DNA of 64,000 nucleotides from Candidatus Latescibacterota bacterium (GCA_965217585.1 OZ244561.1:5024001-5088000); one strand, 5' to 3'; shown: positions 34,620 through 52,709, numbered from the stretch's first letter. A program made the numbers and translations. Notes: generated by a model from the letters alone, not told the origin.

Positions 34620-34740
34620 CGTTCTTTCATAGCCTCTAGGCTATTTTGTGTGTGTTTTACATGGTTGATTTGGAGTAGGAGTACAATAAAAGCATTTCGT
34701 CTTATCTACGACTGCCTTTGTGCCTGAAGGAGGTGCGTCC

Positions 34741-36291: not shown

Positions 36292-36296
36292 GCAGG

Positions 36297-36513
36297 CGAG
36301 GCTGGTGGCACAATGCTTCTGCGACGGCGGCGGTGTTGCTCCGGCAGGGAGCCGATGTCAAGCGACGATCCCATCCTCGATTGCGATCAGGTGGTGCTGA
36401 CGCCTCATGCAGCCGATCAGACGCCCGAGGGGGTGGATTTGTTGAACGAGGGCACGGTGGATAATGTGATTGCGTTTTTGGAGGGGCGGTCGCGGAATAA
36501 TGTGGCGGTGTGA
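36297..36513 (+). pseudogene. Ankyrin-repeat scrap fused to a duplicated 3' end of the dehydrogenase
   Basis: aatgcttctgcgacggcggcggtgttgctccggcagggagccgatgtc matches the ankyrin repeats at 39.2-39.7 kb and 49.7-50.4 kb; the rest copies 34422-34574. Confidence 0.75.
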
Positions 36514-36868
36514 TGTGAGGACGAGGGATGAAACAATAGGATAAACTGATGAGTGAGGAACAGCAGCACCATTTAGCCCTGCCGCAGGGGACGCGGATAC
36601 GGGACTTTGAGTTTCACCGGGTCCTTGGCCATGGTGGATTCGGCATTACCTATCTGGGATGGAATGTCACCTTGGATATTCCGGTGGCGATCAAGGAGTA
36701 TCTGCCTACGGATTTGGCTACCCGCAAGGGTGACCAATCGGTCGTGCCGCAGTCGTCGCAGGTGGTGTCGGACTTCCAATGGGGCTTGGAACGCTTTTTG
36801 GACGAAGCCCGCACTTTGGCGCGGCTTCAACATCCCAACATCGTCCGCGTCCATCAATACTTTGAAGC

Positions 36869-37386
36869 GCATGGTACGGCGTATATCGCAATGGACTATG
36901 TGGAGGGGGAGGACTTGTCGGCGTATCTGACGCGCAAGGGGACGCTGCAAGAAGCCGAGCTTAAGGGCATTCTGTATCCACTGTTGGATGCCTTAGAAGT
37001 GGTGCATGGTGCTGATTTCCTGCATCGGGACATCAAGCCGGGCAATATCGTCCTGCGCGATGTGGATGGATCGCCTGTGTTGCTGGACTTTGGTGCGGCG
37101 CGTCAGGCGATAGGGGCGAAGAGTCGTGCATGGTACGGCGTATATCGCAATGGACTATGTGGAGGGGGAGGACTTGTCGGCGTATCTGACGCGCAAGGGG
37201 ACGCTGCAAGAAGCCGAGCTTAAGGGCATTCTGTATCCACTGTTGGATGCCTTAGAAGTGGTGCATGGTGCTGATTTCCTGCATCGGGACATCAAGCCGG
37301 GCAATATCGTCCTGCGCGATGTGGATGGATCGCCTGTGTTGCTGGACTTTGGTGCGGCGCGTCAGGCGATAGGGGCGAAGAGTCGT
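36869..37386 (+). repeat. Tandem duplication of 259 bp (36869-37127 and 37128-37386)
   Basis: gcatggtacggcgtatatc...ggggcgaagagtcgt repeated head to tail; appears identical and shifts the frame. Confidence 0.9.
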
Positions 37387-37956
37387 TCGGTTACGTCGAT
37401 TGTGACGCCGGGGTATGCACCGATAGAGCAGTATTCGAGTCGGGGGCGTCAGGGGGCTTGGACGGACATTTATGCGTTGGGTGGGGTGTGTTATCGGGCG
37501 TTGACCGGGGAGGTGCCCGACGATGCGACGGATAGGATGCGAGATGACCCGCTGATCCCGGTATCGCAACGGTGTGCGGGTCAAGCGAGTCGAGGGTTTC
37601 TTTTAGCGATAGATGTGGCGTTGTCGGTGGATGAGGGGGATCGTCCTCAGAGTGTTGGGGCTTGGCGGGCGGTGCTAGCGGCGGAGGTGGCGGAAGCGCA
37701 GGAACAGGCGGCGGATACGGCGAAAGCCCAGAAGGATGAGGTGAGTGACGCGACAATCGTGGGGCATGTGGAGCAGGACGCGCCGCCATCGGAGCCGCAG
37801 AAGAAGCCCTTGTTCAAGCGGCTTGCCGTAGTCTTGGGCGTGGTTGCTCTCTTGGTTGGGGGCAAAATGTATGTTGATCATGCCGAACAGGTAGCGTTGG
37901 AGAAGCAGCGTCAAGAACAAGCCGTAGAAAAAGCAAGACTAGCCGCCGAGCAGGCC

Positions 37957-38226
37957 GAGCAGCAGCGTCGGGAACAGGCGGCGTTAGAGCAGCAGCGTCA
38001 GGAGCAGGCAGCCTTAGAGCAGCAGCGTCGGGAACAGGCAGCCTTAGAGCAGCAGCGTCAGGAACAGGCGGCGTTGGAGCAGCAGCGTCGGGAACAGGCG
38101 GCGTTAGAGCAGCAGCGTCAGGAGCAGGCAGCGTTGGAGAAACAACGTCAGGAACAGGCGGCGTTAGAGCAGCAGCGTCAGGAGCAGGCAGCGTTGGAGA
38201 AACAACGTCAGGAACAGGCGGCATTA
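37957..38226 (+). repeat. 30-bp coding tandem repeat x9 (E[Q/K]QR[R/Q]EQAAL); a tenth unit follows the IS
   Basis: Units such as gagcagcagcgtc(a/g)gga(a/g)caggc(a/g)gc(g/c)tt(a/g). Confidence 0.9.
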
Positions 38227-39158
38227 GAGGCTGTCTGAAAACCCTTGCTGTAGCCCGTATTTGAATCGGCGTACTCATCGGGCCATATTCAGGTTTCGCT
38301 ACAAAATCTGAACAGAAAGGCTCGTATGATGAGTACGCCTAGTGGCCAATATGCCACCGATGTAACCGATGCGCAATGGCGGCGGATCGAACCGTTGCTG
38401 CCGGCTTCGACTTGGCAACCGAACGGTCCGGGTCGGCCGCCGCGGGATCAACGCCAGATGGTCAACGGCCTTTTGTATTTGACCAAGACCGGGTGTCCTT
38501 GGGCGCTGCTGCCTTCTTGCTTTGGGCCGTGGAAAACGGTGTATGATTACTTTCGTCGCTGGAGTCTACAAGGGGTCTGGCCACAGGTATTGGATCGACT
38601 CACCCAGCGAGAACGCCGCCTTAACGGACGGGCCCCTCAGCCGTCGGCTGGTTGTGTCGATAGTCAGACGATCAAGACGGCAACCCACGGTAAAACAACC
38701 GGTTATGACGCCGGCAAAAAGATCCAAGGACGTAAACGTCATCTGTTGGTCGACACCTCGGGCTTGCTTAGAGAGGTGGTGGTCACCGCCGCCGATGTAG
38801 ACGATCGCGACGGCTTGAAGCAGGTGTTGACCCGCTATAGTACTCCCGACGTACCCCGGTTACGCAAACTGTGGGTCGATGGCGGCTATCGAGGCGATCC
38901 GATCCGAACGTGGGTGGCCAACCTAAAAAAGACGCACAAAATAGACTTGGAAGTCGTCGCCAAACAAGGCGGCGGATTTACCGTAGTCAAACGTCGTTGG
39001 GTCGTCGAGCGCACGTTTGCGTGGTTGATGAATTTTCGCCGCCATGCCCGAGATTATGAGGTGTTGACCCGCCATAGCGAGGCCTTGATTCAGATTGCCA
39101 TGATCCACTTGCTACTCAAACGGATCAAATAGAAAAAATGGAGTTTTCAGACAGCCTC
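38227..39158 (+). mobile_element. IS5-family element (IS1031-like), complete, 932 bp
   Basis: Perfect 16-bp TIR GAGGCTGTCTGAAAAC / GTTTTCAGACAGCCTC; TTA target duplication at 38224-38226 and 39159-39161. Confidence 0.95.
38326..39132 (+). CDS. IS5-family transposase
   Basis: TD.QW..IEPLLP, TGCPW..LP, VDSQ, GYDAGKK..GRKRH..VDT.G, RWVVERTFAW. Confidence 0.93.
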   Translation: MMSTPSGQYATDVTDAQWRRIEPLLPASTWQPNGPGRPPRDQRQMVNGLLYLTKTGCPWALLPSCFGPWKTVYDYFRRWSLQGVWPQVLDRLTQRERRLNGRAPQPSAGCVDSQTIKTATHGKTTGYDAGKKIQGRKRHLLVDTSGLLREVVVTAADVDDRDGLKQVLTRYSTPDVPRLRKLWVDGGYRGDPIRTWVANLKKTHKIDLEVVAKQGGGFTVVKRRWVVERTFAWLMNFRRHARDYEVLTRHSEALIQIAMIHLLLKRIK

Positions 39159-39719
39159 TTAGAAAAGCAACGTCAGGAGGAACAGGCAGTACTAAAAGAG
39201 GCAAGGGCGTCGTACAGTCTGCACAAGGCGGCGAGGAACAATGCTTCTGAGACGGTCGAGGTGTTGCTCAATGGGGGAGCCGATGCCAACGCCAAAGACA
39301 ACAGTGGCAATACGCCGCTGCACGGGGCGGCGTGGAACAATGCTGCTAAGGCGGCCTTGGTGTTGCTCAATGGGGGAGCCGATGTCCACGCCAAAACCAA
39401 CGCTGGCTTTACGCCGCTGCACGTGGCGGCGGCGGAGGATGCTTCTGCGATGGCGGAGGTGTTGCTCAAACAGGGAGCCGATGTCCACGCCAAAACCAAC
39501 GCTGGCTTTACGCCGCTGCACGTGGCGGCGGCGGAGGATGCTTCTGCGATGGCGGAGGTGTTGCTCAAACAGGGAGCCGATGTCCATGCCAAAGACAGAT
39601 TTGGCCATATGCCGCTGCACTATGCGGCGCGGAATAATGCTTCTGCGACGACCAAGGTCTTGCGTCGTTACGGCGGTCGAAAGTGAAACAAGCTGATTTT
39701 TGAAATAATCGGAGATGCT

Positions 39720-41210
39720 ATGAGCGAAGCGCAACATCCTCTTCACGCCTTACCCCGAGGACATCGGCTGCAAGAATACGAACTGGTGCGCGTGCTAGGC
39801 TTTGGCGGCTTCGGCATGACTTATCTGGGCTTTGACCACAACCTCGACAAAGCCGTCGCCATCAAAGAATACTTGCCCTCCGACATCGCCACCCGCACTG
39901 CCGACCACAGCGTCGCCCCACAAGCCAGCGACTTTCGCGGCGATTTCCAGTGGGGTCTGGAGCGTTTCCTAGACGAAGCACGCACCTTAGCTCGTTTCGA
40001 CCATCGCCACATCATTAAAGTGTATCGTTTCTTTGAGGCACATGGTACGGCGTATATCGTGATGGAGTATGCCGAGGGCGAGACCTTATCGGCGTATTTC
40101 GAACGCAAGGGGACACTGGAAGAAGCCGAACTCAAGGGGATACTGTATCCGCTTCTGGATGGTTTAGAGGTGGTGCATAAAGCGGACTTTCTGCATCGGG
40201 ACATCAAGCCGGGCAACATTGTCCTGCGCGCAAAGGATGGATCTCCGGTGTTGCTGGATTTTGGTGCGGCGCGTCAGGCGATAGGTGCGAAGAGTCGCTC
40301 AGTTACGTCGATAGTAACGCCGGGGTATGCTCCGATCGAGCAGTATTCGAGTCGGGGGCGTCAGGGGCCTTGGACGGACATTTATGCGTTGGGTGGGGTG
40401 TGTTATCGGGCATTGACGGGTCAGGTGCCCGACGATGCGACGGATAGGGTGCGGCAGGACCCGCTGATTCCGGTGGCGAAGCGGTGTGCGGGTCGGGTGA
40501 GTGGTGCGTTTTTGTCGGCGGTTGATTCGGCATTGTCGGTGGATGAGGGGGATCGTCCGCAGAGCATTGCGGCGTGGAGGGCGGTGTTGGAGGTTGGTTC
40601 GGCCTCGGCGCAAGAGCGTCGCCAAGAGGAAACGCCGAGGCATAGGGAGCAGGTCGTGCAGAGGTCGCCTTTGCCGGAGCAAGTTGGCTTGGCGGAGGAG
40701 CGAGAAAAATTTGTCGCGGAAGTGGGGCGCGAGCCGTCCCCGGGCGCGGTGGGCGATGAGGGGAGGACCGACCTACATCATGCCGCAGCCATGAACCTGC
40801 CCGCACTAACTGCATACCTGTTGAACAATGGTGCGGATGTCAACGCCAAAAGCAAATATGGCTGGACGCCGCTGCACCGGGCGGCGTGGGAGGATGCTAC
40901 TGCGACGGCCGAGGAGTTGCTCAAGGGAGGAGCTTACATCCACGCCAAAGACAAAAGTGGCTGGACGCCGCTAGAAAGGGCGGTATATAGAAAAGCTCAT
41001 AAGACGGCCGAGGTATTGCGCCGCTACGGTGCCCGCAACAATAAGTCGGGTGGTAAGGGAAATAGGGAAAGTGGTCAGGCGCAGCACGCGAAGCTCGGCC
41101 GCCTCTCTGACGGTGCCAATAAGTCGAGGGGCGAGGAGAATATGGGTTGTATTACGAAGAGTCTTGTGGGTATGGGGGTCCTAGTTTTGATCGGCCTTCT
41201 TAGCTGTTGA
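39720..41210 (+). CDS. Kinase K2: Ser/Thr kinase-ankyrin with a C-terminal hydrophobic tail
   Basis: Complete Hanks motifs; about three ankyrin repeats (TDLHHAA, GWTPLHRAA); no TM between kinase and ankyrins. Confidence 0.9.
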   Translation: MSEAQHPLHALPRGHRLQEYELVRVLGFGGFGMTYLGFDHNLDKAVAIKEYLPSDIATRTADHSVAPQASDFRGDFQWGLERFLDEARTLARFDHRHIIKVYRFFEAHGTAYIVMEYAEGETLSAYFERKGTLEEAELKGILYPLLDGLEVVHKADFLHRDIKPGNIVLRAKDGSPVLLDFGAARQAIGAKSRSVTSIVTPGYAPIEQYSSRGRQGPWTDIYALGGVCYRALTGQVPDDATDRVRQDPLIPVAKRCAGRVSGAFLSAVDSALSVDEGDRPQSIAAWRAVLEVGSASAQERRQEETPRHREQVVQRSPLPEQVGLAEEREKFVAEVGREPSPGAVGDEGRTDLHHAAAMNLPALTAYLLNNGADVNAKSKYGWTPLHRAAWEDATATAEELLKGGAYIHAKDKSGWTPLERAVYRKAHKTAEVLRRYGARNNKSGGKGNRESGQAQHAKLGRLSDGANKSRGEENMGCITKSLVGMGVLVLIGLLSC

Positions 41211-41239
41211 CGGCTAGTTTGAACGTACACGGAGAGGTT

Positions 41240-42845
41240 ATGAGCAAACAATACCTATCTTTCATCGTGCATTTCGCAGTGGCTTGGCTCTTTTGCACGA
41301 GCCCTGTCTTGGCGCAAATAGATGTCGATGTTGTTGCTGAAAGCATCGTGCGGGTTCGCGCTTATGACGATCACAAAGTCGTGGTTGAAGGGAGCGGGTT
41401 TGTCGTCAATGAAAAGGGATATGTGCTGACGAATGCCCATCTCCTAGAGAAGGCAGAGGGATTGACCGTATTGTCCCTGAAGACCGGGGCCGAGGTTGTG
41501 GCGCAGCGGGCGTTTGCCAGCCGCGACATGAACTTGGCCCTGTTGCACGTACAGGGCTTGAACTTGCTGCCCCTCAGCTTATCCGAGCGGGGCCGATGTA
41601 GGCCGAGTCGTGCAAACGCTGCGGTTCGGCGCTACGGGAGCTGTTCAGCTTTCTCACGGGACGATTGGCACATACCAAGATATCCTCGGCAAGAAGACAA
41701 GCCGTCCTATAGCACACCTGCTACAACACAATGCCTTGATAAATGCCCAAGCCTTCGGCATGCCCTTGTTCAACGAATGCGGGGATGTCGTCGCCATCAA
41801 TATGCCAGATCCGGGCAGCGGCTCGTGGCCGTTTCGGAAAGCGAAACCCAAAGGGACTATTTTTGCCTTGCGCAGTGGCGACATAATAGCTGCGCTCGAA
41901 GACCAAGAAATCGCACATACAGTGGTTGAAGCAGAATGCCTGAGTGCCGTTGAGCGGGCTGAACGCGATAGAAAAGCGGCCGCTGACAGCCTCAAGGTAG
42001 CCAAGGCGCAGGCCGACTCGGCAGGCAAAGCCGCAAAAAAGGCCAAGGCACAGGCCGACTCGGCAAGCGAAGCCGCAAAAAAGGCCAAGGCCAAAGAGAA
42101 GGTCACTCGGCGGGCGGCAGAACGGGCGAAAGCGCGAGCCGATTCCGCAGAGAAAGCGGTGGCCGACAGCCTGAAGATGGCTAAGGCTCGGGCTGATTCC
42201 GCGAGTAAGGCGGCGGCTGACAGCCTCAAAGCGGCCAAGGCCAAAGCCGACAGCCTGAAGATGGCGCAGGCACGGGCGGATTCCGTGAGTAAGTCGGTGG
42301 CCGACAGCCTCAAAGCGGCAGAAGAAAAGGCCGCGCAGCGATTGCAGTGGGGCATTGCTGCGGGGGCGGGACTGGTACTGCTCGCACTTCTCGGTTGGTG
42401 GCTTTCCTCACGGAGGAAAAAGGAGCAATTACAAAGCGCCGAGTCCCGCTTGAGCGAAGCCGAACAAACGGCTGAAGCAGCACGCCAAGCAGCGGAGAAC
42501 GCACCGCAACCCGCGCCGTTCAGGTGTCTATTGGAAGGCCAAGACAGTACGGGTCGGCCATTCGCCTTGACCATATCGGCCTTGGCATTGAGCGAGCGGG
42601 CCGGTGTAACGCTCGGAAGGAGCCCGGCCAACGCCGAATTTATCATTGACCACGAAGAAGTCTCCCGCGAACACGTCCGGCTTACGTATGTTGACGGCCA
42701 ACTCTACGCAGAGGACTTGAATGCCCTGAATGGCACAAAGGTGAACGGACGCCTGCTCAACCCCCGCGAACAGGTGCTGTTGCAAAACAATGATCGGCTT
42801 GAGATAGGGCCAGTCGTTTTTGCCGTGCGTTTGGTTCAGGAGTGA
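41240..42845 (+). pseudogene. T1: trypsin-like pseudoprotease-coiled coil-TM-FHA, split by a frameshift at the G-run 41589-41592
   Basis: Signal peptide, GSGFVV, TNAH in one frame; HNALIN.QAFGMPLFNECG, Ala/Lys stalk, TM and FHA (GRSP, VSREH, DL.ALNGT) in the next frame. Confidence 0.75.
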
Positions 42846-42848
42846 ACA

Positions 42849-44207
42849 TTGCACGGCTTCAGACGCTGGTGTCTCGTCTTTTTTTTGCTCGCGCTTCTAC
42901 TACCGTGCCACGCTGTTGCCGCGCCAGACTTTGACGCGCTTGAGAAGAGCGTGGTACGCATTGTAACGCAGACTAGCCAAGGGCTTGGTGCTGGCACTGG
43001 ATTCGCCATAAACGACCAAGGCCATATTGCGACCAACGTCCACGTCATAGCCAATGCCAACGCGATCAAAGCCATTCCAACCAACTCCAACGTGCTGTAC
43101 GATGTGGAAGTAATCGCCACGTCCCAAGAACTCGACCTTGCAATCGCCTATATCCCAGATATAACCCTGCCGCCGATCACGCTTTCGCTCGCACCAGCCA
43201 TAAAAGGGCAGAAGGTATGGTCCATCGGCTATCCCGGTGGGGCCGACCGGAACAGACCAGCTCACGATCCGACCGTGCAAGACGGCGTCATTGGAAGGAT
43301 TTTTTGGGGTGCGTGGCACACGCAAGAACTCAGGATTATTCAGCACAATGCCCCGACCAATCCGGGCAACAGCGGCGGACCCCTACTAGATGATTGTAGC
43401 CGGGCAATCGGCGTCAATACGCAAGCGTCTCTCGTCGTCATTAGCAGTCCATCCAGCGGGGTGACGCGGGTACCCCATGCGGCGGGCATTTACTGGTCTT
43501 CGCATATAGAGGAATTGGCAAACCTGTTGGGCGACCATGGCATTGCTTTTCAATCAGAGAGCGACGATTGTGTGGCGGCTGGTGGCATGGGAGGTTCTGG
43601 CGAGGCGGAAAAGGCGCAGCACGAGGCGGAGAAAGCCCAGCGCGAAGCGGAAAAGGCTCGGCGCGAGGCCGAACAAGCGCGAGTGCAGGCAGAAGAAGCT
43701 AGCGATCAATTTTTCGTCTGGCTGTTATTGTTGGGGGGTGTGGCATTGATCGCCTTGGTCGTTGCCTTAAAGAAGCCGCGCCAGCTTGCCCAGCAGACCT
43801 TGGAGAAGCCGCGCCAGTTCGTCCAGCAGATGAGTCGGCGCGTGACCAAAAAAGACGCGGCGGCCGTTGCAAAAGGTCCAAATCACGGCATCGTGCTGGC
43901 CGGTTTTGACGGTCGCGGCAACCGCGTCTGCATCGAGTTGTCGCCAGGCCGATTTGCCGGTCAACGCTTGGGGCTTTCGCTCGGCAGGCATCCCGAGTTG
44001 GTGGATGAAGTTGTCGCGGATGAAAACGTATCCCGACGGCATCTGCGAATTGCAGCCGAGGGCGATCAATTTTATGTCGAAGATTTGAACTCCAGCAATG
44101 GGACGTTTCTGAACGAGCAGCGCCTGTCGCCCTTTAAGCCGGCGCGGTTGGACTATGGTACCAGAGTCGCGCTGGGCGATTTGGTACTCGTGGCTTCCAA
44201 GCTTTAG
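42849..44207 (+). CDS. T2: trypsin-like serine protease-TM-FHA
   Basis: Signal peptide; triad TNVH, DLAI, GNSGGP; short stalk; TM; FHA LGRH, VSRRH, DLNSSNGT. Confidence 0.88.
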   Translation: MHGFRRWCLVFFLLALLLPCHAVAAPDFDALEKSVVRIVTQTSQGLGAGTGFAINDQGHIATNVHVIANANAIKAIPTNSNVLYDVEVIATSQELDLAIAYIPDITLPPITLSLAPAIKGQKVWSIGYPGGADRNRPAHDPTVQDGVIGRIFWGAWHTQELRIIQHNAPTNPGNSGGPLLDDCSRAIGVNTQASLVVISSPSSGVTRVPHAAGIYWSSHIEELANLLGDHGIAFQSESDDCVAAGGMGGSGEAEKAQHEAEKAQREAEKARREAEQARVQAEEASDQFFVWLLLLGGVALIALVVALKKPRQLAQQTLEKPRQFVQQMSRRVTKKDAAAVAKGPNHGIVLAGFDGRGNRVCIELSPGRFAGQRLGLSLGRHPELVDEVVADENVSRRHLRIAAEGDQFYVEDLNSSNGTFLNEQRLSPFKPARLDYGTRVALGDLVLVASKL

Positions 44208-44221
44208 ATGGGGTATTGGGC

Positions 44222-45217
44222 ATGAAAAAACGCAGCCGAGAGTTCAACATCTTTAGCATGTCCGCGCTCGATCTGTTCGCCTCCGCTCTCGGTGCCTTCA
44301 TACTCATTACCATAGTGCTGCTGCCCTTTTTTCCGAATCTGGACATGTCGGGACAGGCCAAGGCCGAGTTGGAGCAGGCGCAGGCCGAATTGGAGCAGGC
44401 CAAGGCCAAGTTAGAGCAAGCCAAGGCCCAATCAGAGCAGGAGAAGGCTAAGCTGGAACGGGAGAAGGCTAAGCTGGAACAGGAGAAGGCTAAGCTGGAA
44501 CGGGCAAAGGCCCAAGCTCCGAAAGCGAAAGGTCAGCTTGAAAAACGGGTGGAGGCTTTGCAACAGGAGCTGAAACAGGAGAAAGCCAAGCTGGAACGGG
44601 CAAAGGCCCAAGCTCCGAAAACGAAAGGTCAGCTTGAAAAACGAGTGGAGGCTTTGCAACAGGAGATAGACGACACAACCGTTTTATTGGGCATTAAGAC
44701 GAAGGCGAAGAAGTTCGTGTTCGTCATAGATATGTCGGGCAGTATTTATCAGCCTGGACAGCAAGATTATCGCCAGTTCATAGTATTGTCCATACAAGAC
44801 ATGCTCGCTGCTTTTAAGTCGGAAATAGAGGTCTGTCTCATTGGTTTTCAAGGCTCGAATCTGTTGCACTATTGGCCTCGAAATAGAGGTTACTTTCAAG
44901 TAAAAAAGAATACGCAAGATCGCGTTGTGGGACAGGTAAAAGGCTGGATGAGATTGGTGGATGGCGGCACGCCCACACGCGCCGCTTTGCTGGCGGCGAT
45001 TGCACTGCACCCCGAAGAAATCATCCTGTTGAGCGATGGTGAACCCTCAGAAGATTGGCGCATGGTCGTGCAGGCTGTAACGGTTGAAAATAGGCGGAAG
45101 ATACCCATACACGCCGTAGCCGTTGGCAAATACACGACGAACCGAAAATTTATCGATTTTCTATTGCAGTTGACAGAGCGGAATAATGGGTATGTCGTAG
45201 GAGCCAAACCAGGTTGA
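44222..45217 (+). CDS. MotB/ExbD-like TM-coiled coil-vWA protein
   Basis: N-terminal basic stretch, then a TM with Asp (FSMSALDLFASALGAF); heptad stalk; MIDAS DMSGS, GGTPT, LLSDGEP. Confidence 0.8.
   Translation: MKKRSREFNIFSMSALDLFASALGAFILITIVLLPFFPNLDMSGQAKAELEQAQAELEQAKAKLEQAKAQSEQEKAKLEREKAKLEQEKAKLERAKAQAPKAKGQLEKRVEALQQELKQEKAKLERAKAQAPKTKGQLEKRVEALQQEIDDTTVLLGIKTKAKKFVFVIDMSGSIYQPGQQDYRQFIVLSIQDMLAAFKSEIEVCLIGFQGSNLLHYWPRNRGYFQVKKNTQDRVVGQVKGWMRLVDGGTPTRAALLAAIALHPEEIILLSDGEPSEDWRMVVQAVTVENRRKIPIHAVAVGKYTTNRKFIDFLLQLTERNNGYVVGAKPG
44480..44665 (+). repeat. 96-bp in-frame tandem duplication in the vWA protein stalk
   Basis: QEKAKLERAKAQAPK[A/T]KGQLEKRVEALQQE starts at 44480 and 44576. 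Confidence 0.85.
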
Positions 45218-45218
45218 T

Positions 45219-45587
45219 ATGAACAAATCGAGATTTTCTGTGTACCGAATCGGTCGCGGCTCAGGCGTGGACATCCAGATTGACGATGATTCGGTCTCTC
45301 GCGTCCATGCCGAGCTAATTGCGACGCAAAGCGGCTCTTACTATCTCACCGATTGCGCCAGCAGCGGGGGTAGTTATGTTGCACGAAACGGCGAGTGGAG
45401 ACGCATCCGGCAGGAATTTATAAGCCCGACAGACGCGATTTTACTAGGTCATTATCAGACGACCGCACCCGCACTTATCGCTATGGCCGTGCAAAGGGAG
45501 CACCGTTCAGGAGAGGGCACGTCCCTGCCCGAGGGACCAGTGCGGCGCAACGTAGATACGGGTGAGATCATTGGCGAGGAGGATTGA
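45219..45587 (+). CDS. Small FHA-domain protein
   Basis: IGRG...D.SVSRVHAEL...LTDCASSGGS. Confidence 0.85.
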   Translation: MNKSRFSVYRIGRGSGVDIQIDDDSVSRVHAELIATQSGSYYLTDCASSGGSYVARNGEWRRIRQEFISPTDAILLGHYQTTAPALIAMAVQREHRSGEGTSLPEGPVRRNVDTGEIIGEED

Positions 45588-45588
45588 C

Positions 45589-46374
45589 ATGGCAAAAGGG
45601 CAAGGGGTAGAGCTGGAACAGCGCCTAAAAGTATGCGGCGTCAGTTTGCTAGGAGGCGTCGTATCTATAGCGATTATGAGCATTATTTTCGATCATCCCG
45701 ATTCTGGGGCAGGTGCTTTCCTGCTAGATCGCCACACGGAGAATTTTCCCTATCCATTCACAATCCAAAACGTCATGTGGCTTATGTTTTGGGTCGGCTG
45801 CGGTGAACTCTGGGTGCGGTTTAATCAAGCCAAGCTGGAAATGGAGCAGATGTCGAAACGCTATCTGCCGGAGGACGATGAGGTTATGTTGCGGGCGCGG
45901 GATTTGGGTTCCTTTTATCAGAAGGTGAAACCCATGGCCGAGGAGCGCGCCTTTTATTTACAGCGTCTAATCATGCGCTGTATTCTACAATTCCAGGGGA
46001 GCCACTCAGTGAACCAAGCCAACTCGCTATTGAATTCTTCCCTCGAATTATTTCAGCACGAGCTCGAACTCAAGTACGCGATGTTGCGCTATCTCGTCTG
46101 GCTGATACCAACGCTGGGTTTTATTGGCACTGTGGTGGGTATTGCGTTTGCATTGGATTATGCGGCCAACATTGAAAACCCACAGGACCCGACCTTGCTG
46201 GCCGGGATCACGGGTCGGCTGGGCGTCGCGTTTTACACGACCTTGCTCGCGTTGATCCAGTCGGCACTGCTGGTGTTTGCGCTGCACATTGCGCAAAGCC
46301 AGGAGGAGATGGCCTTAAACCAATCCGGCCAATACTGTTTGGACAACTTAATCAACCGGCTTTACGAAAAGTAA
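45589..46374 (+). CDS. MotA/TolQ/ExbB proton-channel family protein
   Basis: LIPTLGFIGTVVGI and LGVAFYTTLLAL motifs, about four TM segments; ATG 45589 after GAGGAGG. Confidence 0.88.
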   Translation: MAKGQGVELEQRLKVCGVSLLGGVVSIAIMSIIFDHPDSGAGAFLLDRHTENFPYPFTIQNVMWLMFWVGCGELWVRFNQAKLEMEQMSKRYLPEDDEVMLRARDLGSFYQKVKPMAEERAFYLQRLIMRCILQFQGSHSVNQANSLLNSSLELFQHELELKYAMLRYLVWLIPTLGFIGTVVGIAFALDYAANIENPQDPTLLAGITGRLGVAFYTTLLALIQSALLVFALHIAQSQEEMALNQSGQYCLDNLINRLYEK

Positions 46375-46427
46375 GTTGCGGGCGAGACGCCTGCGCGGCC
46401 GGAATAACCCAAAGATAGGAGGGCATC

Positions 46428-47081
46428 ATGCCTGTTTATCGCGGACCCGATGGCAAAATCATTGAAGAGAAAACCGATAAGCGGACAGAGGATACCAAAC
46501 CAACGGACGCGGCCAACAAGCCGTTGCCGCCGGCACCACAGGGTGGCGAGCAACCCGCCGGTGCCGGGCGTTTAGATGCGCCCACGCAGCGGATGGGCGA
46601 AAGCCGTGCGCCGGCCAATGTCGGCGAGGAGGAGCGGACGCGCTTGGTGGGTGGACGGCGGCGGCAAGAAGACGAGGAGCGCCGGCAAGAGCGCGCCGAG
46701 GAAGATCGCGGCATGGATGATCCGGTTGTGGGGTGGTTGGTAGTTGTCGAGGGGCCGGGAAAAGGGAAGGCCGTGCAACTGGGTTATGGCTCTAATTCGA
46801 TTGGACGCGGGGAGACCGATCGCATCAAGCTCGATTTTGGCGACGATCAGATTTCGCGCAATGGCCATGCCGTTGTTACGTACGATCCTCGCGGCAGGAA
46901 GTTTTATGTGCAGCACGGCGGCGGCACCAACCTGACGTATCTCGGGGATCAGCCCGTGCTCGCACCGGCTGAGTTGCCAGCGCTGAGTCACATCAGCATC
47001 GGCAATACGGTTCTCCGTTTCGTGTCCCTGTGCGGTGCCGAGTTTGATTGGCAGGATACCGAAGGAAGCGAAGCGCGATGA
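46428..47081 (+). CDS. FHA-domain protein with a disordered, Thr-containing N-terminus
   Basis: PVVGWLVVVEGPGKG, IGRG, GDDQISR..HA...YDP, NLTYL. Confidence 0.85.
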   Translation: MPVYRGPDGKIIEEKTDKRTEDTKPTDAANKPLPPAPQGGEQPAGAGRLDAPTQRMGESRAPANVGEEERTRLVGGRRRQEDEERRQERAEEDRGMDDPVVGWLVVVEGPGKGKAVQLGYGSNSIGRGETDRIKLDFGDDQISRNGHAVVTYDPRGRKFYVQHGGGTNLTYLGDQPVLAPAELPALSHISIGNTVLRFVSLCGAEFDWQDTEGSEAR

Positions 47082-48235
47082 ACGAGTTAGACGGGCGCTT
47101 TGCCGCGCGGCAAATTCCCGGCAAACGGGAGTATCAAGAGGATGATTACGGCCTGCTGGATGGGCGCGACCTCGGCCTAGACGGTAGCGAGCACTCCATG
47201 TTGTTGGTCGCCGATGGCATGGGCGGCCATGTTGGCGGCGCGACGGCTAGCGGCCTTTTGAGTAAGACCTTTGTCGAGGTGTATTCGCAGGCTTCTGGGC
47301 CAATCGTCGATCGGCTCCGGGACTGCCTCGAAGCGGGTAATAAAGCCATCGCCGATGCCATTGCCGAAAATCCCGAACTCGACAGCATGGGTTCGACCTT
47401 GGTTGCGGCTGTTGTTTCAAGCGAAGGGCTGAACTGGATCAGCGTGGGCGACTCTCCGTTGTGGTTGTTTCGCGAGGGTCAATTGGAGCGTTTGAATGCA
47501 GACCACTCTATGGCTCCGGTTCTTGCGGATCTCGTGGCAACGGGGCGCATGACCGCAGAGGAAGCGGCTCGAGATCCAAGTCGGCACTCGCTGCGGTCGG
47601 CGGTCATGGGCGATGACATACATCTGATTGACGTATCGTCGCAGCCGGTGGCGGTCGAGCAGGGCAACCGGCTGCTATTGGCGAGCGATGGTTTGATGAC
47701 CCTCAGCGACCAAGAGATCGAGGCTATCCTCAAGAAAACGCAAGACGCGCCATTGGAGGATAGCGCCGCGGCCCTTATCCAAGCTGTGGAAGATGCCGAA
47801 CAGCCCCACCAAGACAATACGACTGTCTTATTGTACGCGCCGGCTGAGAGTGCGGAATTGGCTGCGGCTGCTATTGGCGAACAGGAAGCTGCTCAGGGTA
47901 AGCCGCGATTAAAACGAAAACGCCGAGGCAGACTGTTGGGGATGTTGCTATGCGTTGCTGTCTTATGGGGGGTGCTTTATTGGCTTAGGCGGGGCGAAGA
48001 TGCGGTTGTTGAGATTCCAGCGGCAACTGTTGAGACTCCAGCAACAACGGATGTTGAACCCACTGAAGGCTCTGATGTTCAAGTGCCAATGGCATCCGGC
48101 GCCGAAGAGAGCGCACCGGTTTCTCAGGAGGAGGCGACAGGGGACAGCACTCGTGCGGGGGTGGAGAAAGCCGAGTTGAACGAGCCGCCAGCAGAGAAAG
48201 AAGAGAGTGTTAGGGTCGAGGGAGGGGAAGAGTGA
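47078..48235 (+). CDS. PP2C/PPM Ser/Thr phosphatase with a TM anchor
   Basis: REYQEDD, VADGMGGH, GSTL, VGDS, DHS, LASDGL, QDNTT; TM and acidic tail; ATGA overlap. Confidence 0.92.
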   Translation: MNELDGRFAARQIPGKREYQEDDYGLLDGRDLGLDGSEHSMLLVADGMGGHVGGATASGLLSKTFVEVYSQASGPIVDRLRDCLEAGNKAIADAIAENPELDSMGSTLVAAVVSSEGLNWISVGDSPLWLFREGQLERLNADHSMAPVLADLVATGRMTAEEAARDPSRHSLRSAVMGDDIHLIDVSSQPVAVEQGNRLLLASDGLMTLSDQEIEAILKKTQDAPLEDSAAALIQAVEDAEQPHQDNTTVLLYAPAESAELAAAAIGEQEAAQGKPRLKRKRRGRLLGMLLCVAVLWGVLYWLRRGEDAVVEIPAATVETPATTDVEPTEGSDVQVPMASGAEESAPVSQEEATGDSTRAGVEKAELNEPPAEKEESVRVEGGEE

Positions 48236-48276
48236 AATCGTAGGGGCGTCGCTACGATACAAACACGGGACAGATT

Positions 48277-50400
48277 ATGAGTGGGGAACAACAGCATCGC
48301 TTGGCGTTGCCGCAGGGGACGCGCATACGGGATTTTGAGTTTCACCGCGTCCTTGGCTACGGCGGGTTTGGCATTACCTATCTGGGATGGAACATTGCCT
48401 TGGATATTCCCGTGGCGATCAAGGAGTATCTGCCCGCAGACTTGGCTACCCGCGAACAAGACCTGTCCGTTGTGCCGCAGTCGTCACAGACAGCGGCCGA
48501 TTTCCAATGGGGCTTGGAACGCTTCTTGGACGAAGTTCGAACCCTTGCACGCTTTCAGCACCGCAACATCGTCCGCGTCCATCATTTTTTTGAAGCGCAC
48601 AGTACTGCCTATATCACAATGGACTATGTGGAGGGGGAGGACTTGTCGGCGTATCTGACGCGCAAGGGGACGCTGAGCGAAGACGAGCTTAAAGCGATTC
48701 TGTATCCACTGTTGAGTGCTTTAGAAGTGATACATCAGGCTGATTTCCTACATCGAGACATCAAGCCGGGCAACATTGTCTTGCGCGATTCGGATGGTGC
48801 GCCGGTGTTGCTGGACTTTGGCTCGGCACGTCAGGCGATAGGAGCGAAGAGTCGTTCAGTTACGTCGATTGTGACGCCGGGGTATGCGCCGATCGAGCAG
48901 TATTCGAGTCGGGGTCGTCAGGGGCCTTGGACGGACCTTTATGCGTTGGGAGGTGTGTGTTATCGGGCGTTGACGGGTCAGGTGCCGGAGGATGCGACGG
49001 ATAGGGTGCGTCTCGATCCGTTGGTTCCGGTATCACAGCGGTGTGCGGGTCGGGTGAGTGGTGCGTTTTTGTCGGCGATAGATGTGGCGTTGTCGGTGGA
49101 TGAGGGGGATCGTCCGCAGAGTGTGGGGGCTTGGCGGGAGGCGTTGGAAGTGGATGTGGTGGAAGCAGAGGGGGATGAGTTGGCCGAAGTGCCGAGGCGT
49201 GGGACGGCGGAAATACAGGAGCTCGAGACGGCGGATGTCTCGGACGTGAGCAAGGGGGGACGCGACGCTTTACCATCGGATACCAAGAAAAAGGAAGCCG
49301 TCGAGCATAAACCAGCTAGCGCAAAGTGGGTGTTCGTAATCATGGGCGGGGTCATTTTTTTCGCGATACTCGCCGGTTTTTACGACGTAAAGAACGAGCG
49401 AGCGGTGTTGGAGAAGCAGCGTCGGGAACAGGCGGTGTTGGAGAAGCAGCGTCGGGAACAAGCGGTGTTGGAGAAGCAACGTCGGGAGCAGGCAGTGTTG
49501 GAGAAGCAACGTCGGGAACAGGCAGCGTTGGAGAAGCAACGTCGGGAACAGGCGGCGTTGGAGAAACAGCGTCGGGAACAGGCGGCGTTGGAGAAACAGC
49601 GTCGGGAACAAGCGGTGTTGGAGAAGCAGCGTCGGGAACAGGCGGCGTTGGAGAAACAGCGTCGGGAACAGGCGGCGTTAGAGAAGCAACGTCAGGAGGA
49701 ACAGGCAGTACTAAAAAAAGCAGGGGTGTACAGTCTGCACGATGCGGCGTCTAAGAATGCCTATGAGGCAGCCGAGGTGTTGCTCAAGCAGGGGGCTAAA
49801 GTCAATACCAAAGCCGACAATGGCTGGACGCCGCTACACGATGCGGCGCGGAAAAATGCTGCTATGACGGCCGAGGTGTTGCTCAAGGGGGGTGCCAACG
49901 TCCACGCCAAAGACAAATATGGCTGGACGCCGTTGCACAGGGCGGCGGAGAAGGATGCTTCTGCGACGGCGGAGATGTTGCTCAAGCAGGGAGCCGACGC
50001 CAATGCCAGAAATAACTATGGCGATACGCCGCTACACATAGCGGCGCGGAATAATGCTTCTAGGACGGTCGAGGTGTTACTCAAGCAGGGAGCCGACATC
50101 CACGCCAAAGACAAATATGGCGCTACGCCGCTGCACGTAGCGGCGGAGAAGGATGCTTTTGGGACGGCTGAGGTGTTGCTTAAGGGGGGAGCCGACGCTA
50201 ACGCCAAAAACAAATATGGCTGGACGCCGTTGCACTGGGCGGCGCGGAATAATGCTTCTTCGACGGCCGAGGTGTTACTCAAGGGGAGGGCCGACGCTAA
50301 CGCCAAAACCAACAAGGGCGGGACGCCGCTGCACGTAGCGGTGGGATGGAATGCTTCTGCGACGGCGGAGGTCTTGCGCCGTTACGGCGGTCGAAAGTGA
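48277..50400 (+). CDS. Kinase K3: Ser/Thr kinase-TM-coiled coil-ankyrin
   Basis: Hanks motifs; TM WVFVIMGGVIFFAILAGF; ten 10-aa repeats; about seven ankyrin repeats. Confidence 0.92.
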   Translation: MSGEQQHRLALPQGTRIRDFEFHRVLGYGGFGITYLGWNIALDIPVAIKEYLPADLATREQDLSVVPQSSQTAADFQWGLERFLDEVRTLARFQHRNIVRVHHFFEAHSTAYITMDYVEGEDLSAYLTRKGTLSEDELKAILYPLLSALEVIHQADFLHRDIKPGNIVLRDSDGAPVLLDFGSARQAIGAKSRSVTSIVTPGYAPIEQYSSRGRQGPWTDLYALGGVCYRALTGQVPEDATDRVRLDPLVPVSQRCAGRVSGAFLSAIDVALSVDEGDRPQSVGAWREALEVDVVEAEGDELAEVPRRGTAEIQELETADVSDVSKGGRDALPSDTKKKEAVEHKPASAKWVFVIMGGVIFFAILAGFYDVKNERAVLEKQRREQAVLEKQRREQAVLEKQRREQAVLEKQRREQAALEKQRREQAALEKQRREQAALEKQRREQAVLEKQRREQAALEKQRREQAALEKQRQEEQAVLKKAGVYSLHDAASKNAYEAAEVLLKQGAKVNTKADNGWTPLHDAARKNAAMTAEVLLKGGANVHAKDKYGWTPLHRAAEKDASATAEMLLKQGADANARNNYGDTPLHIAARNNASRTVEVLLKQGADIHAKDKYGATPLHVAAEKDAFGTAEVLLKGGADANAKNKYGWTPLHWAARNNASSTAEVLLKGRADANAKTNKGGTPLHVAVGWNASATAEVLRRYGGRK
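49402..49701 (+). repeat. 30-bp coding tandem repeat x10 (A[V/A]LEKQRREQ)
   Basis: gcgg(t/c)gttggagaa(g/a)ca(g/a)cgtcggga(a/g)ca(g/a) units. Confidence 0.92.
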
Positions 50401-50433
50401 AATAAGCTGATTTTTGAAACAATTGGAGATGCT

Positions 50434-51987
50434 ATGAGCGAAGAGCACCATCGCTTGGCGTTGCCGCAGGGGACGCGCATACGAGACTTTGAGTTTCACC
50501 GCGTCCTTGGCTACGGCGGATTTGGTATTACCTATCTGGGATGGAACATTGCCTTGGATATTCCCGTGGCGATCAAGGAGTATCTGCCTGCGGACTTGGC
50601 TACCCGCGAACAAGACCTGTCCGTCGTGCCGCAAACGACTCAGGCGGCGTCGGATTTCCAATGGGGCTTGGAACGCTTCTTGGACGAAGCTCGCGTCCTA
50701 GCGCGCTTTCAGCACCCCAACATCGTCCGCGTCCATCACTTCTTTGAGGCGCACAGCACGGCCTATATCGTGATGGACTATGTGGAGGGGGAAGATTTAT
50801 CGGTGTATCTGACGCGCAAAGGGACGCTGAGCGAAGACGAGCTTAAGGCCGTTTTGTATCCGTTGCTCAATGGCTTAGAAGTGGTGCATCGGGCTGATTT
50901 CCTGCATCGGGACATCAAGCCGGGCAATATCGTCCTGCGCGCTGAGGATGGTTCGCCGGTGTTGCTGGACTTTGGCGCGGCGCGTCAGGCGATAGGGGCA
51001 AAGAGTCGTTCGGTTACGTCGATCGTGACGCCGGGGTATGCGCCGATCGAGCAGTATTCGAGTCGTGGGCGTCAAGGGGCGTGGACGGACATTTATGCGT
51101 TGGGGGGCGTGTGCTATCGAGCGTTGACCGGGCAGGTGCCCGACGATGCGACGGATAGGGTGCGGAATGACCCGCTGATTCCGGTGGTGAAGCGGTGTGC
51201 GGGTCAAGCGAGTCGAGGAATTCTTTCGGCGATCGATTTAGCGTTGTCGGTAGATGAGGGGGATCGTCCACAGAGTATTGGGGCTTGGCGGGAGACGTTG
51301 GGGGCGGATGTGGCCTCGCAGCAAGAGTGTCGCCAAGAAGAGGAAAGGCAGTCAAGGGCCTCGTCGCCGAGTCGTCCGCCGAGATTGTCCACCTCGCAGC
51401 ACGAACACCGCCAAGAAGAAAAGAAAAAAGAGGGCATAGGCGGCGAGACCGCTGGTTCGCCTCTCACTACTCAGTCAGCGGCCAAAGTTAAAGATGCGGA
51501 GCACCTGAACACATGGTTTAAGCTCCACTGTATTTGCCTTGCTGCTATCATACCGTTGGGCGTCTCTGCTGCCGGGCTTGCCGTGTTCGGTTTACTTGCT
51601 GTCGTGTCCGGTTTACTTGCTGTGGTATTCGGTTTACGTATCCTGCATAAATTGTGGTCACTCATCCCCAATCACAAAGCAAGGACGACACCAGGCAAAG
51701 CAGTTGGATTTCTCTTTATACCGTTTTTTAATCTCTACTGGAACTTCGTTGCAATTTACGGTCTCGCCAAAGCTCTCAATACCGAAACCGGTCGAAGATC
51801 AGTCAGCGAGGTGGCTAGTTTTATCTATTGCTGCTCATTTATGGTCGCCGCGATGGCCTCCCTAGTGAATACAATGGAGGACCGGACTTTGATAATCGCT
51901 ATTGGATATATTGTTGGGGGTGTGCTCTGGTTCATCATTCTAAAGCAAATGAAGAACGCCGGCAGACTCATTTTGCAGACGGCATAA
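50434..51987 (+). CDS. Kinase K4: Ser/Thr kinase with a polytopic C-terminal membrane domain (DUF4328-like)
   Basis: Hanks motifs; C-terminal TM segments with TPGKAVGFLFIPFFNLYW. Confidence 0.88.
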   Translation: MSEEHHRLALPQGTRIRDFEFHRVLGYGGFGITYLGWNIALDIPVAIKEYLPADLATREQDLSVVPQTTQAASDFQWGLERFLDEARVLARFQHPNIVRVHHFFEAHSTAYIVMDYVEGEDLSVYLTRKGTLSEDELKAVLYPLLNGLEVVHRADFLHRDIKPGNIVLRAEDGSPVLLDFGAARQAIGAKSRSVTSIVTPGYAPIEQYSSRGRQGAWTDIYALGGVCYRALTGQVPDDATDRVRNDPLIPVVKRCAGQASRGILSAIDLALSVDEGDRPQSIGAWRETLGADVASQQECRQEEERQSRASSPSRPPRLSTSQHEHRQEEKKKEGIGGETAGSPLTTQSAAKVKDAEHLNTWFKLHCICLAAIIPLGVSAAGLAVFGLLAVVSGLLAVVFGLRILHKLWSLIPNHKARTTPGKAVGFLFIPFFNLYWNFVAIYGLAKALNTETGRRSVSEVASFIYCCSFMVAAMASLVNTMEDRTLIIAIGYIVGGVLWFIILKQMKNAGRLILQTA

Positions 51988-52015
51988 TGGAATCACTCGC
52001 AAAAAAGGAGAAGCT

Positions 52016-52380
52016 ATGTTTCGCTCGCTATCACCGGGGGCTATCGGCGCAAGCGTAGAGAACCTCGCAGATGGGCTTGATTTGGCCGCGCGGCACGGGT
52101 TTGCCGGGTATCACTTTAGCATTGGCGAAGTCGCGGCCATGGGCGCAGAAGAGGCTCTCGCGCTGGCCGAGCGCAAGGGCGTGCGCCTGTCGGCGTGGGG
52201 ATTTCCCGTTGATTTTCGCGGGGAGGAGGCCGCATACCAAGCGAGCTTGGCGCAGTTGCCGGAGTTGGCAAAGGTGGCGGCGGCCTTGGGGGTGCGGCGG
52301 ACGGCGACTTGGATCGCGCAGGCTTCGGACGAGTGGATTTAACAAAACAATTTCGCCGTTCACGTCGAGCGGCTCCGGCC
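52016..52380 (+). pseudogene. 5' duplicate fragment of the epimerase at 53423
   Basis: The first ~300 bp are nearly identical to 53423-53722; it then diverges, with an in-frame TAA at 52340-52342. Confidence 0.88.
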
Positions 52381-52392
52381 AAGGCGCGAGGG

Positions 52393-52672: not shown

Positions 52673-52709
52673 GTTTGAAAAGCTGAGAAAGGAGGCTTTG
52701 GGAGAAAGA

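Follow-up and report, generated by a model that had tools for sequence, protein, structure and literature searches.

A TolQ/ExbB-like channel and vWA gene pair clustered with kinase, phosphatase, FHA and protease genes: a putative accessory envelope system in a Candidatus Latescibacterota bacterium

Results

Gene content of the cluster

The gene cluster described here lies in a 64,000-nt window, the whole stretch of DNA that was analysed, from Candidatus Latescibacterota bacterium (GCA_965217585.1 OZ244561.1:5024001-5088000). Open reading frame (ORF) calls and Pfam domains place eleven co-oriented genes on the plus strand between positions 36549 and 51987, encoding four kinases (K1 to K4), two protease-FHA proteins, a vWA protein with a membrane helix, two further FHA proteins, a TolQ/ExbB-like channel subunit and a membrane PP2C phosphatase. 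On balance these genes probably form one accessory envelope system, in which a TolQ-like/vWA motor is tied to a phosphothreonine switch and to a pair of proteases. The gene order and the end coordinates agree with a first-pass annotation made from the sequence alone. As to the integrity of the genes, nine are intact, and K1 (by a duplication and an insertion sequence, IS) and the first protease gene (by a frameshift) are broken.

Transmembrane (TM) segments were taken from a hydropathy scan and domains from Pfam. K1 (36549-39686) is a broken, K3-like receptor kinase gene with a Pkinase domain, one TM segment and 30-nt repeats, whose ankyrin end is displaced; its pieces are 36549-37223 and 37126-38238 (Pkinase, TM segment and repeats) and 39138-39686 (ankyrin). 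From K2 to K4 the spacing between genes runs from a 4-nt overlap up to 53 nt. K2 (39720-41210) encodes a Hanks kinase domain followed by ankyrin repeats and a C-terminal TM segment (residues 476-494). The first protease-FHA gene (41207-42845) has its Trypsin_2 and FHA matches in two frames (ORFs 41207-41929 and 41610-42845), and its product would consist of an inactive trypsin-like head, a coiled coil, a TM segment and a cytoplasmic FHA domain. The second (42849-44207) matches Trypsin_2 at 1.9e-25 and FHA at 4.3e-17 and has a His-Asp-Ser triad of the active type. The gene of the vWA protein, of the kind named transpore-helix vWA (TPH-vWA), follows at 44216-45217 (Pfam VWA, 25.8 bits), where relatives begin at the ATG at 44222.

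The small FHA gene (45219-45587) encodes a cytoplasmic protein of 122 aa (FHA, 1.6e-13) and the channel gene (45589-46374) a protein of 261 aa counted from the ATG at 45589, the ORF opening at a GTG at 45562. The long FHA gene (46428-47081) encodes 217 aa with a disordered N-terminal half (FHA, 7e-7). The PP2C gene (47048-48235; PP2C_2 and SpoIIE matches, one TM segment at residues 295-313, an acidic tail) probably starts at the ATG at 47078, overlapping the stop codon of the long FHA gene. K3 (48277-50400) combines a Hanks kinase domain with a TM segment (351-369), ten 30-nt repeats of 10 aa each and ankyrin repeats beyond the membrane, and K4 (50434-51987) ends in a C-terminal domain with four TM segments that is weakly DUF4328-like; a relative of K4 at locus L054 matches DUF4328 at 5.9e-40. 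A scan of 36000-53500 for promoters and terminators was uninformative, finding 6 and 15 sites where shuffled sequences gave 8.0 and 17.1.

The channel subunit and its vWA partner

The channel protein matches Pfam MotA_ExbB (PF01618) with 38.9 bits against a cut-off of 22.9 (E 8.3e-10; 40.5 bits in a scan of the own genome), and PomA is its sole match among PDB sequences, at E 0.46. The best structural match of its AlphaFold2 model (predicted local distance difference test, pLDDT, 85; predicted template modelling score, pTM, 0.80) is TolQ 8odt_A, with Z 14.4, 207 residues aligned and a root-mean-square deviation of 3.6, followed by ExbB (Z about 13), ZorA (about 10.6) and MotA/PomA (about 9.5). 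Matches between helical bundles can be unspecific at Z below about 13, a value that TolQ and ExbB reach or exceed. Foldseek ranked these families as well, with TolQ as the top hit (E 3e-3). Residues 35-261 span all of TolQ, and an additional hydrophobic helix (15-33) lies in front. Going by the model, the channel is TolQ/ExbB-like rather than flagellar-stator-like. Thr175 is found in 81 of 82 sequences and Thr181, Thr217 and Thr218 in all 82, figures that describe conservation within the channel family alone.

In the TPH-vWA protein, Asp19 in the motif SMSALDLFASALGAF of the N-terminal membrane helix is invariant (69/69 sequences). The structural model (pLDDT 82.5) has a helix at residues 13-38, in which hydropathy places the TM segment at 20-38, followed by two long helices (40-98 and 102-153), which make up a stalk with about 110 residues in helix, and by the vWA domain (155-330). 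At E<=1e-3 this domain has 181 matches among PDB chains, with ITIH1, CLCA1, integrin I domains and BatB among them. An intact DxSxS metal-site motif is seen in the window protein and in 34 of the 69 family members, and no correlation between an intact metal site and the protease make-up of the locus was evident.

The own genome encodes 11 MotA_ExbB proteins, and an ExbD gene lies within about 1 kb of eight of them. The three without one are the channel genes of the two copies of the system (see below) and one other gene. Among 17 ExbD matches in this genome, those nearest to both copies are more than 150 kb distant, and no ExbD was present among 118 neighbour ORFs of 12 diverse loci of the system. 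The TPH-vWA protein, as suggested by gene position and by its membrane helix, would take the place of TolR, ExbD or MotB as the inner subunit.

Three proteins were considered as natural fusions. P0018 (FHA and channel) was rejected since its match to the small FHA protein is lost after residue 37, which was read as a frameshift artefact, and P0122 contains no fusion with the long FHA protein. P0121 (464 aa, a single member) has channel and long FHA protein within a single reading frame, joined exactly at the N-terminal motif of the latter; either a genuine fusion or the loss of a stop codon may account for it, and as a singleton it is too weak as evidence of contact.

An active and an inactive protease

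The protease-FHA proteins form two types. In an alignment of 102 protease-FHA ORFs from the fetched loci the His-Asp-Ser triad is found in 43 and absent in 59, of which 32 have His-Asn-Phe and the others other replacements. Catalytic residues are missing from the first protease gene of the window, whose intact relatives have His-Asn-Phe in place of His-Asp-Ser. Exactly one inactive and one active protease together with one vWA gene occur in 31 loci, and all of these but L068 and L082 have the inactive gene immediately before the active one (29 loci). Where loci of the Latescibacterota type have a single protease, it is the inactive copy; the active protease alone is kept in six loci (L040, L045, L048, L051, L079 and L084).

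In the active copy a signal peptide precedes the protease head; a coiled coil, a TM segment with basic residues behind it and the FHA domain come next. The hydrophobic segments are at residues 7-25 and 289-307. The signal peptide and the TM segment with its basic residues place the head in the periplasm and the FHA domain in the cytoplasm. A natural fusion of two kinds of parts was seen at L013:15671-18757, where a protein of 1029 aa joins a trypsin-like domain with an intact His-Asp-Ser triad to a Hanks kinase domain and ankyrin repeats.

Kinases, FHA readers and the phosphatase

Read from the sequence, all four kinase domains of the window keep the glycine loop and the VAIK, HRD and DFG motifs, and the acidic metal-binding motifs of the PP2C protein are likewise present. 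Identity among the kinase domains is 73-87% (K2 to K1, K3 and K4, 73-77%), and the C-terminal halves of the kinases are divergent. In a survey of 64 of the 105 kinase-labelled ORFs from the loci, from which near-duplicates from Latescibacterota had been dropped, the C-terminal domain is FGE-sulfatase in 29, Sel1 in 10, ankyrin in 7, another domain in 6 (TerB+DnaJ, TM2, DUF4328, PEGA, SNase, RDD+PG_binding) and none recognised in 12. FGE-sulfatase, the commonest sensor domain on the linked kinases, is also found as a stand-alone protein near the cluster in 3 of the 12 diverse loci (L009:14964-15791, L053:2953-3594 and L084:19633-20418).

A conserved motif, MPxYRGPDGxIIExKT, marks the N-terminus of the long FHA protein, and within the disordered half Thr53 and Thr71 are conserved (comparison of 76 sequences); by these sequence features the two threonines would be the likeliest phospho-acceptor sites of the protein. 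The kinases match generic NCBIfam kinase models. The PP2C protein reaches 136.9 bits with the Stp1-type model, under its cut-off of 230, and the remaining cluster proteins likewise stay under the curated cut-offs.

Conservation, distribution and phylogeny

The channel family comprises 3329 proteins at E<=0.001 in a word-seeded search, and a full scan of representatives gave about 208 clusters at 50% identity (E<=1e-30). In a collection with one genome per species 399 loci were found, and the 80 best of them were retrieved together with flanks of up to 10 kb. Partners were searched among all ORFs of at least 60 aa with phmmer (E<=1e-5) and the window proteins as queries; each ORF was labelled by its best query and counted when on the same strand and within 8 kb of the channel gene. 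Counts refer to the 61 of the 80 loci that have at least 8 kb on both sides. The long FHA gene is present in 58 of the 61, a kinase gene in 56, the protease-FHA, vWA and PP2C genes in 54 each and the small FHA gene in 44; all six kinds of partner are present in 37. This gene set, recurring as it does around channel homologues, is a system rather than a chance neighbourhood.

Two blocks are stable. The first is small FHA-channel-long FHA-PP2C, the small FHA gene being directly 5′ of the channel gene in 58 of the 80 loci. The second consists of the protease gene or genes and the vWA gene, which shift jointly, being upstream in Latescibacterota and downstream in Gammaproteobacteria and Binatia. 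A stable core with variable flanking kinases across phyla, named beforehand in the first-pass annotation as support for a system, is what the fetched loci contain. The closest fetched relative (L007) has core DNA about 90% identical to that of the window and a different set of flanking kinases.

Reduced forms also occur. A second, minimal copy in the genome of the window (G000:C1:1130757-1136013; L005:12758-18013) consists of the vWA, channel, long FHA and PP2C genes and a kinase gene with ankyrin repeats, and lacks protease-FHA and small FHA genes. Its channel and vWA proteins are 85% and 81% identical to those of the window, and in the channel tree it clusters with the minimal loci L023 and L026, apart from the window copy. 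Directly 5′ of the minimal copy lie genes for a 945-aa protein with collagen repeats and a PD40 beta-propeller (L005:9623-12460) and for other surface-type proteins. An intermediate form with one protease, vWA, channel, long FHA, PP2C and kinase genes and no small FHA gene is found in L029, L032, L034-L036, L038 and L050. These natural forms reduce the invariant core to the channel, the vWA protein, the long FHA protein, the PP2C phosphatase and a kinase.

The element is accessory. At E<=1e-20 the channel gene was found in 38 of 168 genomes of the phylum and in 17 of 30 of the genus, and several closed single-contig genomes of the genus lack it; the genome record CBDCDC010000002.1 holds three loci (L009, L015 and L019). 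The loci span seven phylum labels, of which the Actinomycetota label is one 11-kb contig; some Gemmatimonadota rows are on short contigs and could be binning errors. A quick maximum-likelihood tree of 82 channel proteins mostly groups by phylum label, yet requires 12 label changes against a minimum of 6, and seven gammaproteobacterial rows form a clade inside the Latescibacterota rows (support 88, with the branch drawn open). The tree fits occasional transfer without proving horizontal transfer, by which the element has probably spread.

Damage and polymorphism in the window copy

K1 carries two lesions. An exact tandem duplication (36869-37127 = 37128-37386, 259/259 nt identical) shifts the frame, and an IS of about 0.9 kb at about 38221-39159, with 16-nt inverted ends and a TTA target duplication, parts the repeat region from the ankyrin repeats. 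The transposase ORF of the IS (38326-39132, 268 aa, DDE type; Pfam DDE_Tnp_1 and DUF4096) is a twelfth co-oriented ORF within the cluster. Read across the IS, K1 has the same build as K3. The inactive protease gene is frameshifted at about 41589, where it has 2 nt fewer than the intact L007 gene (553 aa); the lesion was located by tblastn with the intact L007 protein, which switches frame at 41589-41593.

Both genes were compared with Logan contigs of four public runs of one study (X1 to X4), which may include the source sample, so that the contigs are not independent support. The frameshifted protease allele is found in contigs of X1 and X4, and an in-frame allele with two extra bases, like that of L007, in contigs of X2 and X3. 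An IS-free K1 joint (38223 to 39159) is present in contigs of X2, X3 and X4. As IS-bearing and IS-free alleles coexist, and likewise frameshifted and in-frame ones, both lesions appear to be polymorphic among the runs. The 259-nt duplication, which is beyond the resolution of the contigs, may be very recent or an artefact of assembly.

Genomic surroundings

No genes for partners from a type VI secretion system (T6SS) or from flagellar, gliding or Ton/Tol systems were found among the 39 other window ORFs scanned, which bears out the first-pass statement on T6SS, TonB and flagellar genes, nor among the 118 neighbour ORFs of the 12 diverse loci. In the window and these loci the homologues are thus set outside such systems, and pal, tolB, rodA and pbp genes were also missing there. 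Neither PADLOC nor NCBIfam named a system for the cluster proteins, in line with the earlier view that no established set matches. The flanks are mostly metabolic or housekeeping genes in 9 of the 12 loci, and toxin-antitoxin, restriction or Schlafen-type genes stand beside L053, L068 and L078.

In the window a stretch of defence genes (10430-20999) lies 16-26 kb upstream of the cluster. It begins with a type III restriction enzyme and its methylase (10430-14593), continues with a pentapeptide-repeat protein (14596-16098) and with HEC-01 B and A (16148-17958), and ends with another ATPase that is HEC-01A-like (19908-20999); purH, dapA, dapB and ppk sit between this stretch and the cluster. A HicB-like antitoxin gene is found at 5208-5591, and other transposase genes at 9553-10326 (DDE_5) and 58317-59534 (DDE_Tnp_1_assoc and DDE_Tnp_1). 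The gene directly in front of K1 (34720-36291; AAA-ATPase_like and PDDEXK_9) was rejected as a member of the system, for it recurs in just one of the 12 loci (L068:1887-3428, Vicinamibacteria). Right behind K4 there is a direct repeat (52000-52380 and 53407-53787; 97% identity over 300 nt aligned), about 380 nt long by comparison with L007, that copies the start of a xylose-isomerase-like (AP_endonuc_2) gene and whose two copies enclose about 1 kb without a recognised gene; it may be an insertion or recombination scar at the edge of the cluster.

Discussion

A phosphothreonine switch on an ion-driven motor

Overall, what was first observed at this locus was confirmed with corrections, and its interpretation was supported in part. 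The reading preferred here, and rated somewhat above an even chance, is that of one accessory envelope system built from a motor, a phosphothreonine switch and a protease pair. Five channel subunits would surround two vWA proteins, seven chains in all, and ion flow would be turned into movement of the stalked periplasmic vWA heads. Receptor kinases with interchangeable outward-facing sensors, in this copy ankyrin and multi-TM domains and elsewhere mostly FGE-sulfatase or Sel1 domains, would respond to cues from outside or from the envelope. They would phosphorylate conserved threonines in disordered cytoplasmic segments, foremost those of the 217-aa FHA protein. The marks would be read by four FHA domains, two of them soluble and two the cytoplasmic tails of the membrane-spanning proteins with protease heads, and this reading would assemble or release motor, adaptor and protease pair until the membrane PP2C resets the switch. 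Phosphorylation may in this way gate ion flux or proteolysis. The data show the domains, folds and topology signals, the invariant residues, the synteny, the active and inactive protease pair, the variable sensors, the lack of a TolR/ExbD partner and the accessory distribution; from these we infer the 5:2 stoichiometry, the rotation, which protein phosphorylates which, and the output.

For the output, envelope surveillance, that is the sensing of a threat or of contact, is favoured over housekeeping, because the element is accessory, occurs at up to three loci per genome record, is polymorphic and has fast-changing sensors; it is the weakest link of the reading. Gating of the protease was put forward in the first-pass annotation; proteolysis cannot be a universal output, for many related loci keep the inactive protease alone or none. 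Since the minimal forms lack proteases, the core output must be the motor itself, with the proteases as an optional load.

Several observations weigh against the envelope system as set out above. The TPH-vWA protein has no Pfam ExbD or MotB match; its only matches to ExbD/TolR/MotB-like models are to PADLOC ZorB1 and ZorB3 (E about 1e-3, residues 6-91), and a profile of its helix, run against every ORF of the own genome, hit just the two vWA proteins and no ExbD or TolR. In 35 of 69 sequences the vWA metal site is degenerate, so that metal-dependent ligand binding is not universal. The small FHA gene is missing in 17 of the 61 full-flank loci. Proteolysis is not the core output, given that many loci have no active protease and that the minimal form has neither protease. 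In this copy K1 and the inactive protease gene are broken, so that it may be decaying. Surveillance or defence is suggested by distribution and polymorphism alone, and the flanks in the 12 loci are mostly housekeeping genes.

A more specific version of the envelope system is tentative, and we regard it as doubtful at present. It is that of a mechano-proteolytic surveillance machine, in which swapped sensors would detect a biotic cue (phage, predator or epibiont, host surface), phosphothreonine would recruit the motor to the stalked protease pair, and mechanical work of the vWA heads would switch on proteolysis or envelope remodelling; transfer would have distributed the whole machine among bacteria of several phyla, both marine and symbiotic.

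Other explanations

Two further explanations are both considered unlikely. One is a Zorya-like defence against phages or other invaders, in which the envelope motor senses, kinases and FHA proteins relay or amplify, and the effector is a protease or a loss of membrane potential. In its favour, the match of the channel model to ZorA has Z about 10.6 and there are weak PADLOC matches to ZorA2 and ZorB; the occurrence is patchy (38/168 genomes of the phylum, three loci in CBDCDC010000002.1), phylum labels are mixed in the tree (12 changes against 6), and broken alleles are found along with intact ones. L053, L068 and L078 have toxin-antitoxin, restriction or Schlafen-type neighbours, and in the window there are a type III restriction system and HEC-01 at a distance of 18-26 kb upstream. 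However, these window genes are separated from the cluster by purH, dapA, dapB and ppk, and in 9 of the 12 loci the flanks are housekeeping or metabolic. No PADLOC system model matches, the core is without ZorC/D-type or other nuclease effectors, and there is neither a ZorA tail nor a peptidoglycan-binding domain of the ZorB type. Outward sensors also fit extracellular or envelope cues rather than intracellular phage cues.

The other, held equally improbable, is envelope maintenance: a force transducer to the outer membrane, Tol-Pal-like or helping adhesion or gliding, that the phospho-genes would tune to growth or wall status. In Actinobacteria, PknB, PstP and FhaA tune growth and wall status, and the long FHA and PP2C proteins resemble the FhaB/FipA and Stp1/PstP types, below curated cut-offs. 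The fold nearest to the channel is that of TolQ, and PG_binding_1 is present in 2 of the 64 surveyed kinase-labelled ORFs (a kinase of L056 and an ORF of L028 without a Pkinase match). Force transduction to the outer membrane is also proposed in PMC12204202. Against maintenance speak the accessory nature of the element, which closed single-contig genomes of the genus lack, and the eight ExbB/TolQ-ExbD/TolR pairs that the own genome already has. The window and the 12 loci hold no pal, tolB, rodA or pbp genes, and the sensor domains differ widely among close relatives.

That the window copy is a decaying remnant of a once-functional acquired cassette and does nothing here is very improbable: K1 is indeed interrupted by an IS and a frame-shifting duplication and the inactive protease gene is frameshifted, in a form that recurs in contigs of X1 and X4, but nine of eleven genes are intact with 87-93% protein identity to L007 in the five pairs compared, three kinases are still intact, intact alleles are present in the same set of runs, and the natural minimal forms without both proteases imply that the damage is limited to dispensable or redundant parts.

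Significance of the coupling

The known 5:2 motors (Mot, Tol, Ton, Gld/Por and Zor) couple ion flow to a different job each, and we know of no 5:2 motor that is governed by Ser/Thr phosphorylation. The cluster offers a testable case of a dedicated kinase, phosphatase and FHA set that would switch such a motor or listen to it, with the conserved pair of an active and an inactive protease as the motor's likely load. Were the mechano-proteolytic version true, this would be the first rotary 5:2 ion motor under a eukaryote-like receptor-kinase/PP2C/FHA switch. Carriers labelled other than metagenome bins include Nioella ostreopsis Z7-4 (L079) and Gammaproteobacteria bacterium LSUCC0112 (L051), and these may be open to genetics. 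TPH-vWA motors, which according to the available text of PMC12204202 were predicted only by modelling in 2025, would also gain a function from the cluster.

Comparison with known systems

With TolQ-TolR-TolA and ExbB-ExbD-TonB the cluster shares the fold of the channel subunit and an Asp-bearing membrane helix in the inner partner. The periplasmic domain of TolR/ExbD is absent and is replaced by a coiled-coil stalk with a vWA head; a TolA/TonB-like third partner, pal and tolB are lacking, the channel has the extra N-terminal hydrophobic helix, and the element is accessory. Zorya consists of ZorAB together with ZorC, D or E, where ZorA has a long cytoplasmic tail and ZorB a peptidoglycan-binding domain. 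Common to Zorya and the cluster are a pair of the 5:2-motor type outside motility and transport, a patchy distribution and the structural likeness to ZorA given above. In contrast, the 261-aa channel has no ZorA tail and its partner ends in a vWA and not in a peptidoglycan-binding domain. The PADLOC matches among the eleven cluster proteins are confined to ZorA2 (23.7 bits) and ZorB (E about 1e-3), with no other Zor protein.

The second protease copy has Trypsin_2 and the His-Asp-Ser triad in common with HtrA, DegP and DegS. It differs in having no PDZ domain and instead a coiled coil, a TM segment and an FHA domain, and NCBIfam models of the HtrA type give 64-69 bits against cut-offs of 416-470.

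The closest analogues in function are the T6SS threonine-phosphorylation switch, the Esr pathway and soluble vWA modules without a motor. In the T6SS pathway of PpkA, PppA and Fha1 a membrane Hanks kinase, a PP2C phosphatase and an FHA scaffold control the assembly of a machine, and PpkA carries a periplasmic vWA domain. The three kinds of protein are all present here, but the vWA domain is on the motor partner and not on the kinase, T6SS genes are missing from the window and the 12 loci, and the TagH/Fha1-type model TIGR03354 gives 40 and 27.8 bits where its cut-off is 120.25. Similarly, relative to the actinobacterial FhaA/FhaB-PstP-PknA/PknB cluster, FhaB/FipA reaches 52 bits against 125 and PknB_PASTA 123-135 against 450, and rodA and pbp genes do not accompany the genes here, in the window or in the 12 loci. 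Modules that combine a vWA protein with phospho-signalling and have no motor are also known. The TerY-P triad joins vWA, kinase and PP2C. Deinococcus DRA0331-0334 and Sulfolobus ArnA/ArnB reportedly are modules of vWA, Hanks kinase, FHA and PP2C-type proteins in which the vWA protein is a soluble partner in the cytoplasm. Unlike these modules, the present cluster has its vWA head on a membrane helix, beside a gene for a channel, and two of its FHA domains have a protease attached.

The Esr epibiont-sensing pathway of Actinomycetes (PMC13622651) is, in the available part of its description, a proposed threat sensor with diversifying parts. It shares with the cluster a variable outward sensor, Ser/Thr kinases, a phosphatase, a vWA protein and an FHA output protein, the last being phosphorylated on Thr in a disordered region (PMC13622651). 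The same text describes as Esr's own a MoxR ATPase, a transglutaminase, a beta-propeller filament and a link to Esx secretion; Esr is given there as confined to Actinomycetes (PMC13622651), and it has neither a TolQ-like channel nor protease-FHA proteins.

Closest to the motor core are the motors predicted by Williams-Jones et al. (Mol Biol Evol 2025, PMC12204202), by the portion of that paper that was accessible. There a TolQ-like protein and a TPH-vWA protein are predicted to form a proton-driven 5:2 motor, in which the vWA protein is proposed to replace TolR/ExbD inside the pentamer and to transduce force to the outer membrane, as a helper of adhesion or gliding. Shared with the present loci are the tolQ-like gene tightly linked to a membrane-helix vWA gene without tolR or exbD, the conserved Asp in the vWA membrane helix and conserved Thr residues in the channel. 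The likeness is one of gene arrangement and description, the seed family of the paper being from Idiomarina, and the vWA genes are there mostly heterologous pairs; here there is one, and two just in L042, L043 and L062 of the 80 loci. The accessible text mentions no kinase, phosphatase or protease, and 'FHA' occurs in it only within 'FhaC'; a literature search for the combined set of domains found no paper joining the motor with a kinase/phosphatase/FHA module. The term undescribed, used for the cluster in the first-pass annotation, accordingly no longer applies to the channel and vWA pair. In that portion of the paper the motor core is already predicted, whereas a prediction that couples it to a protease pair and to a kinase/phosphatase/FHA switch was found neither there nor by the literature search.

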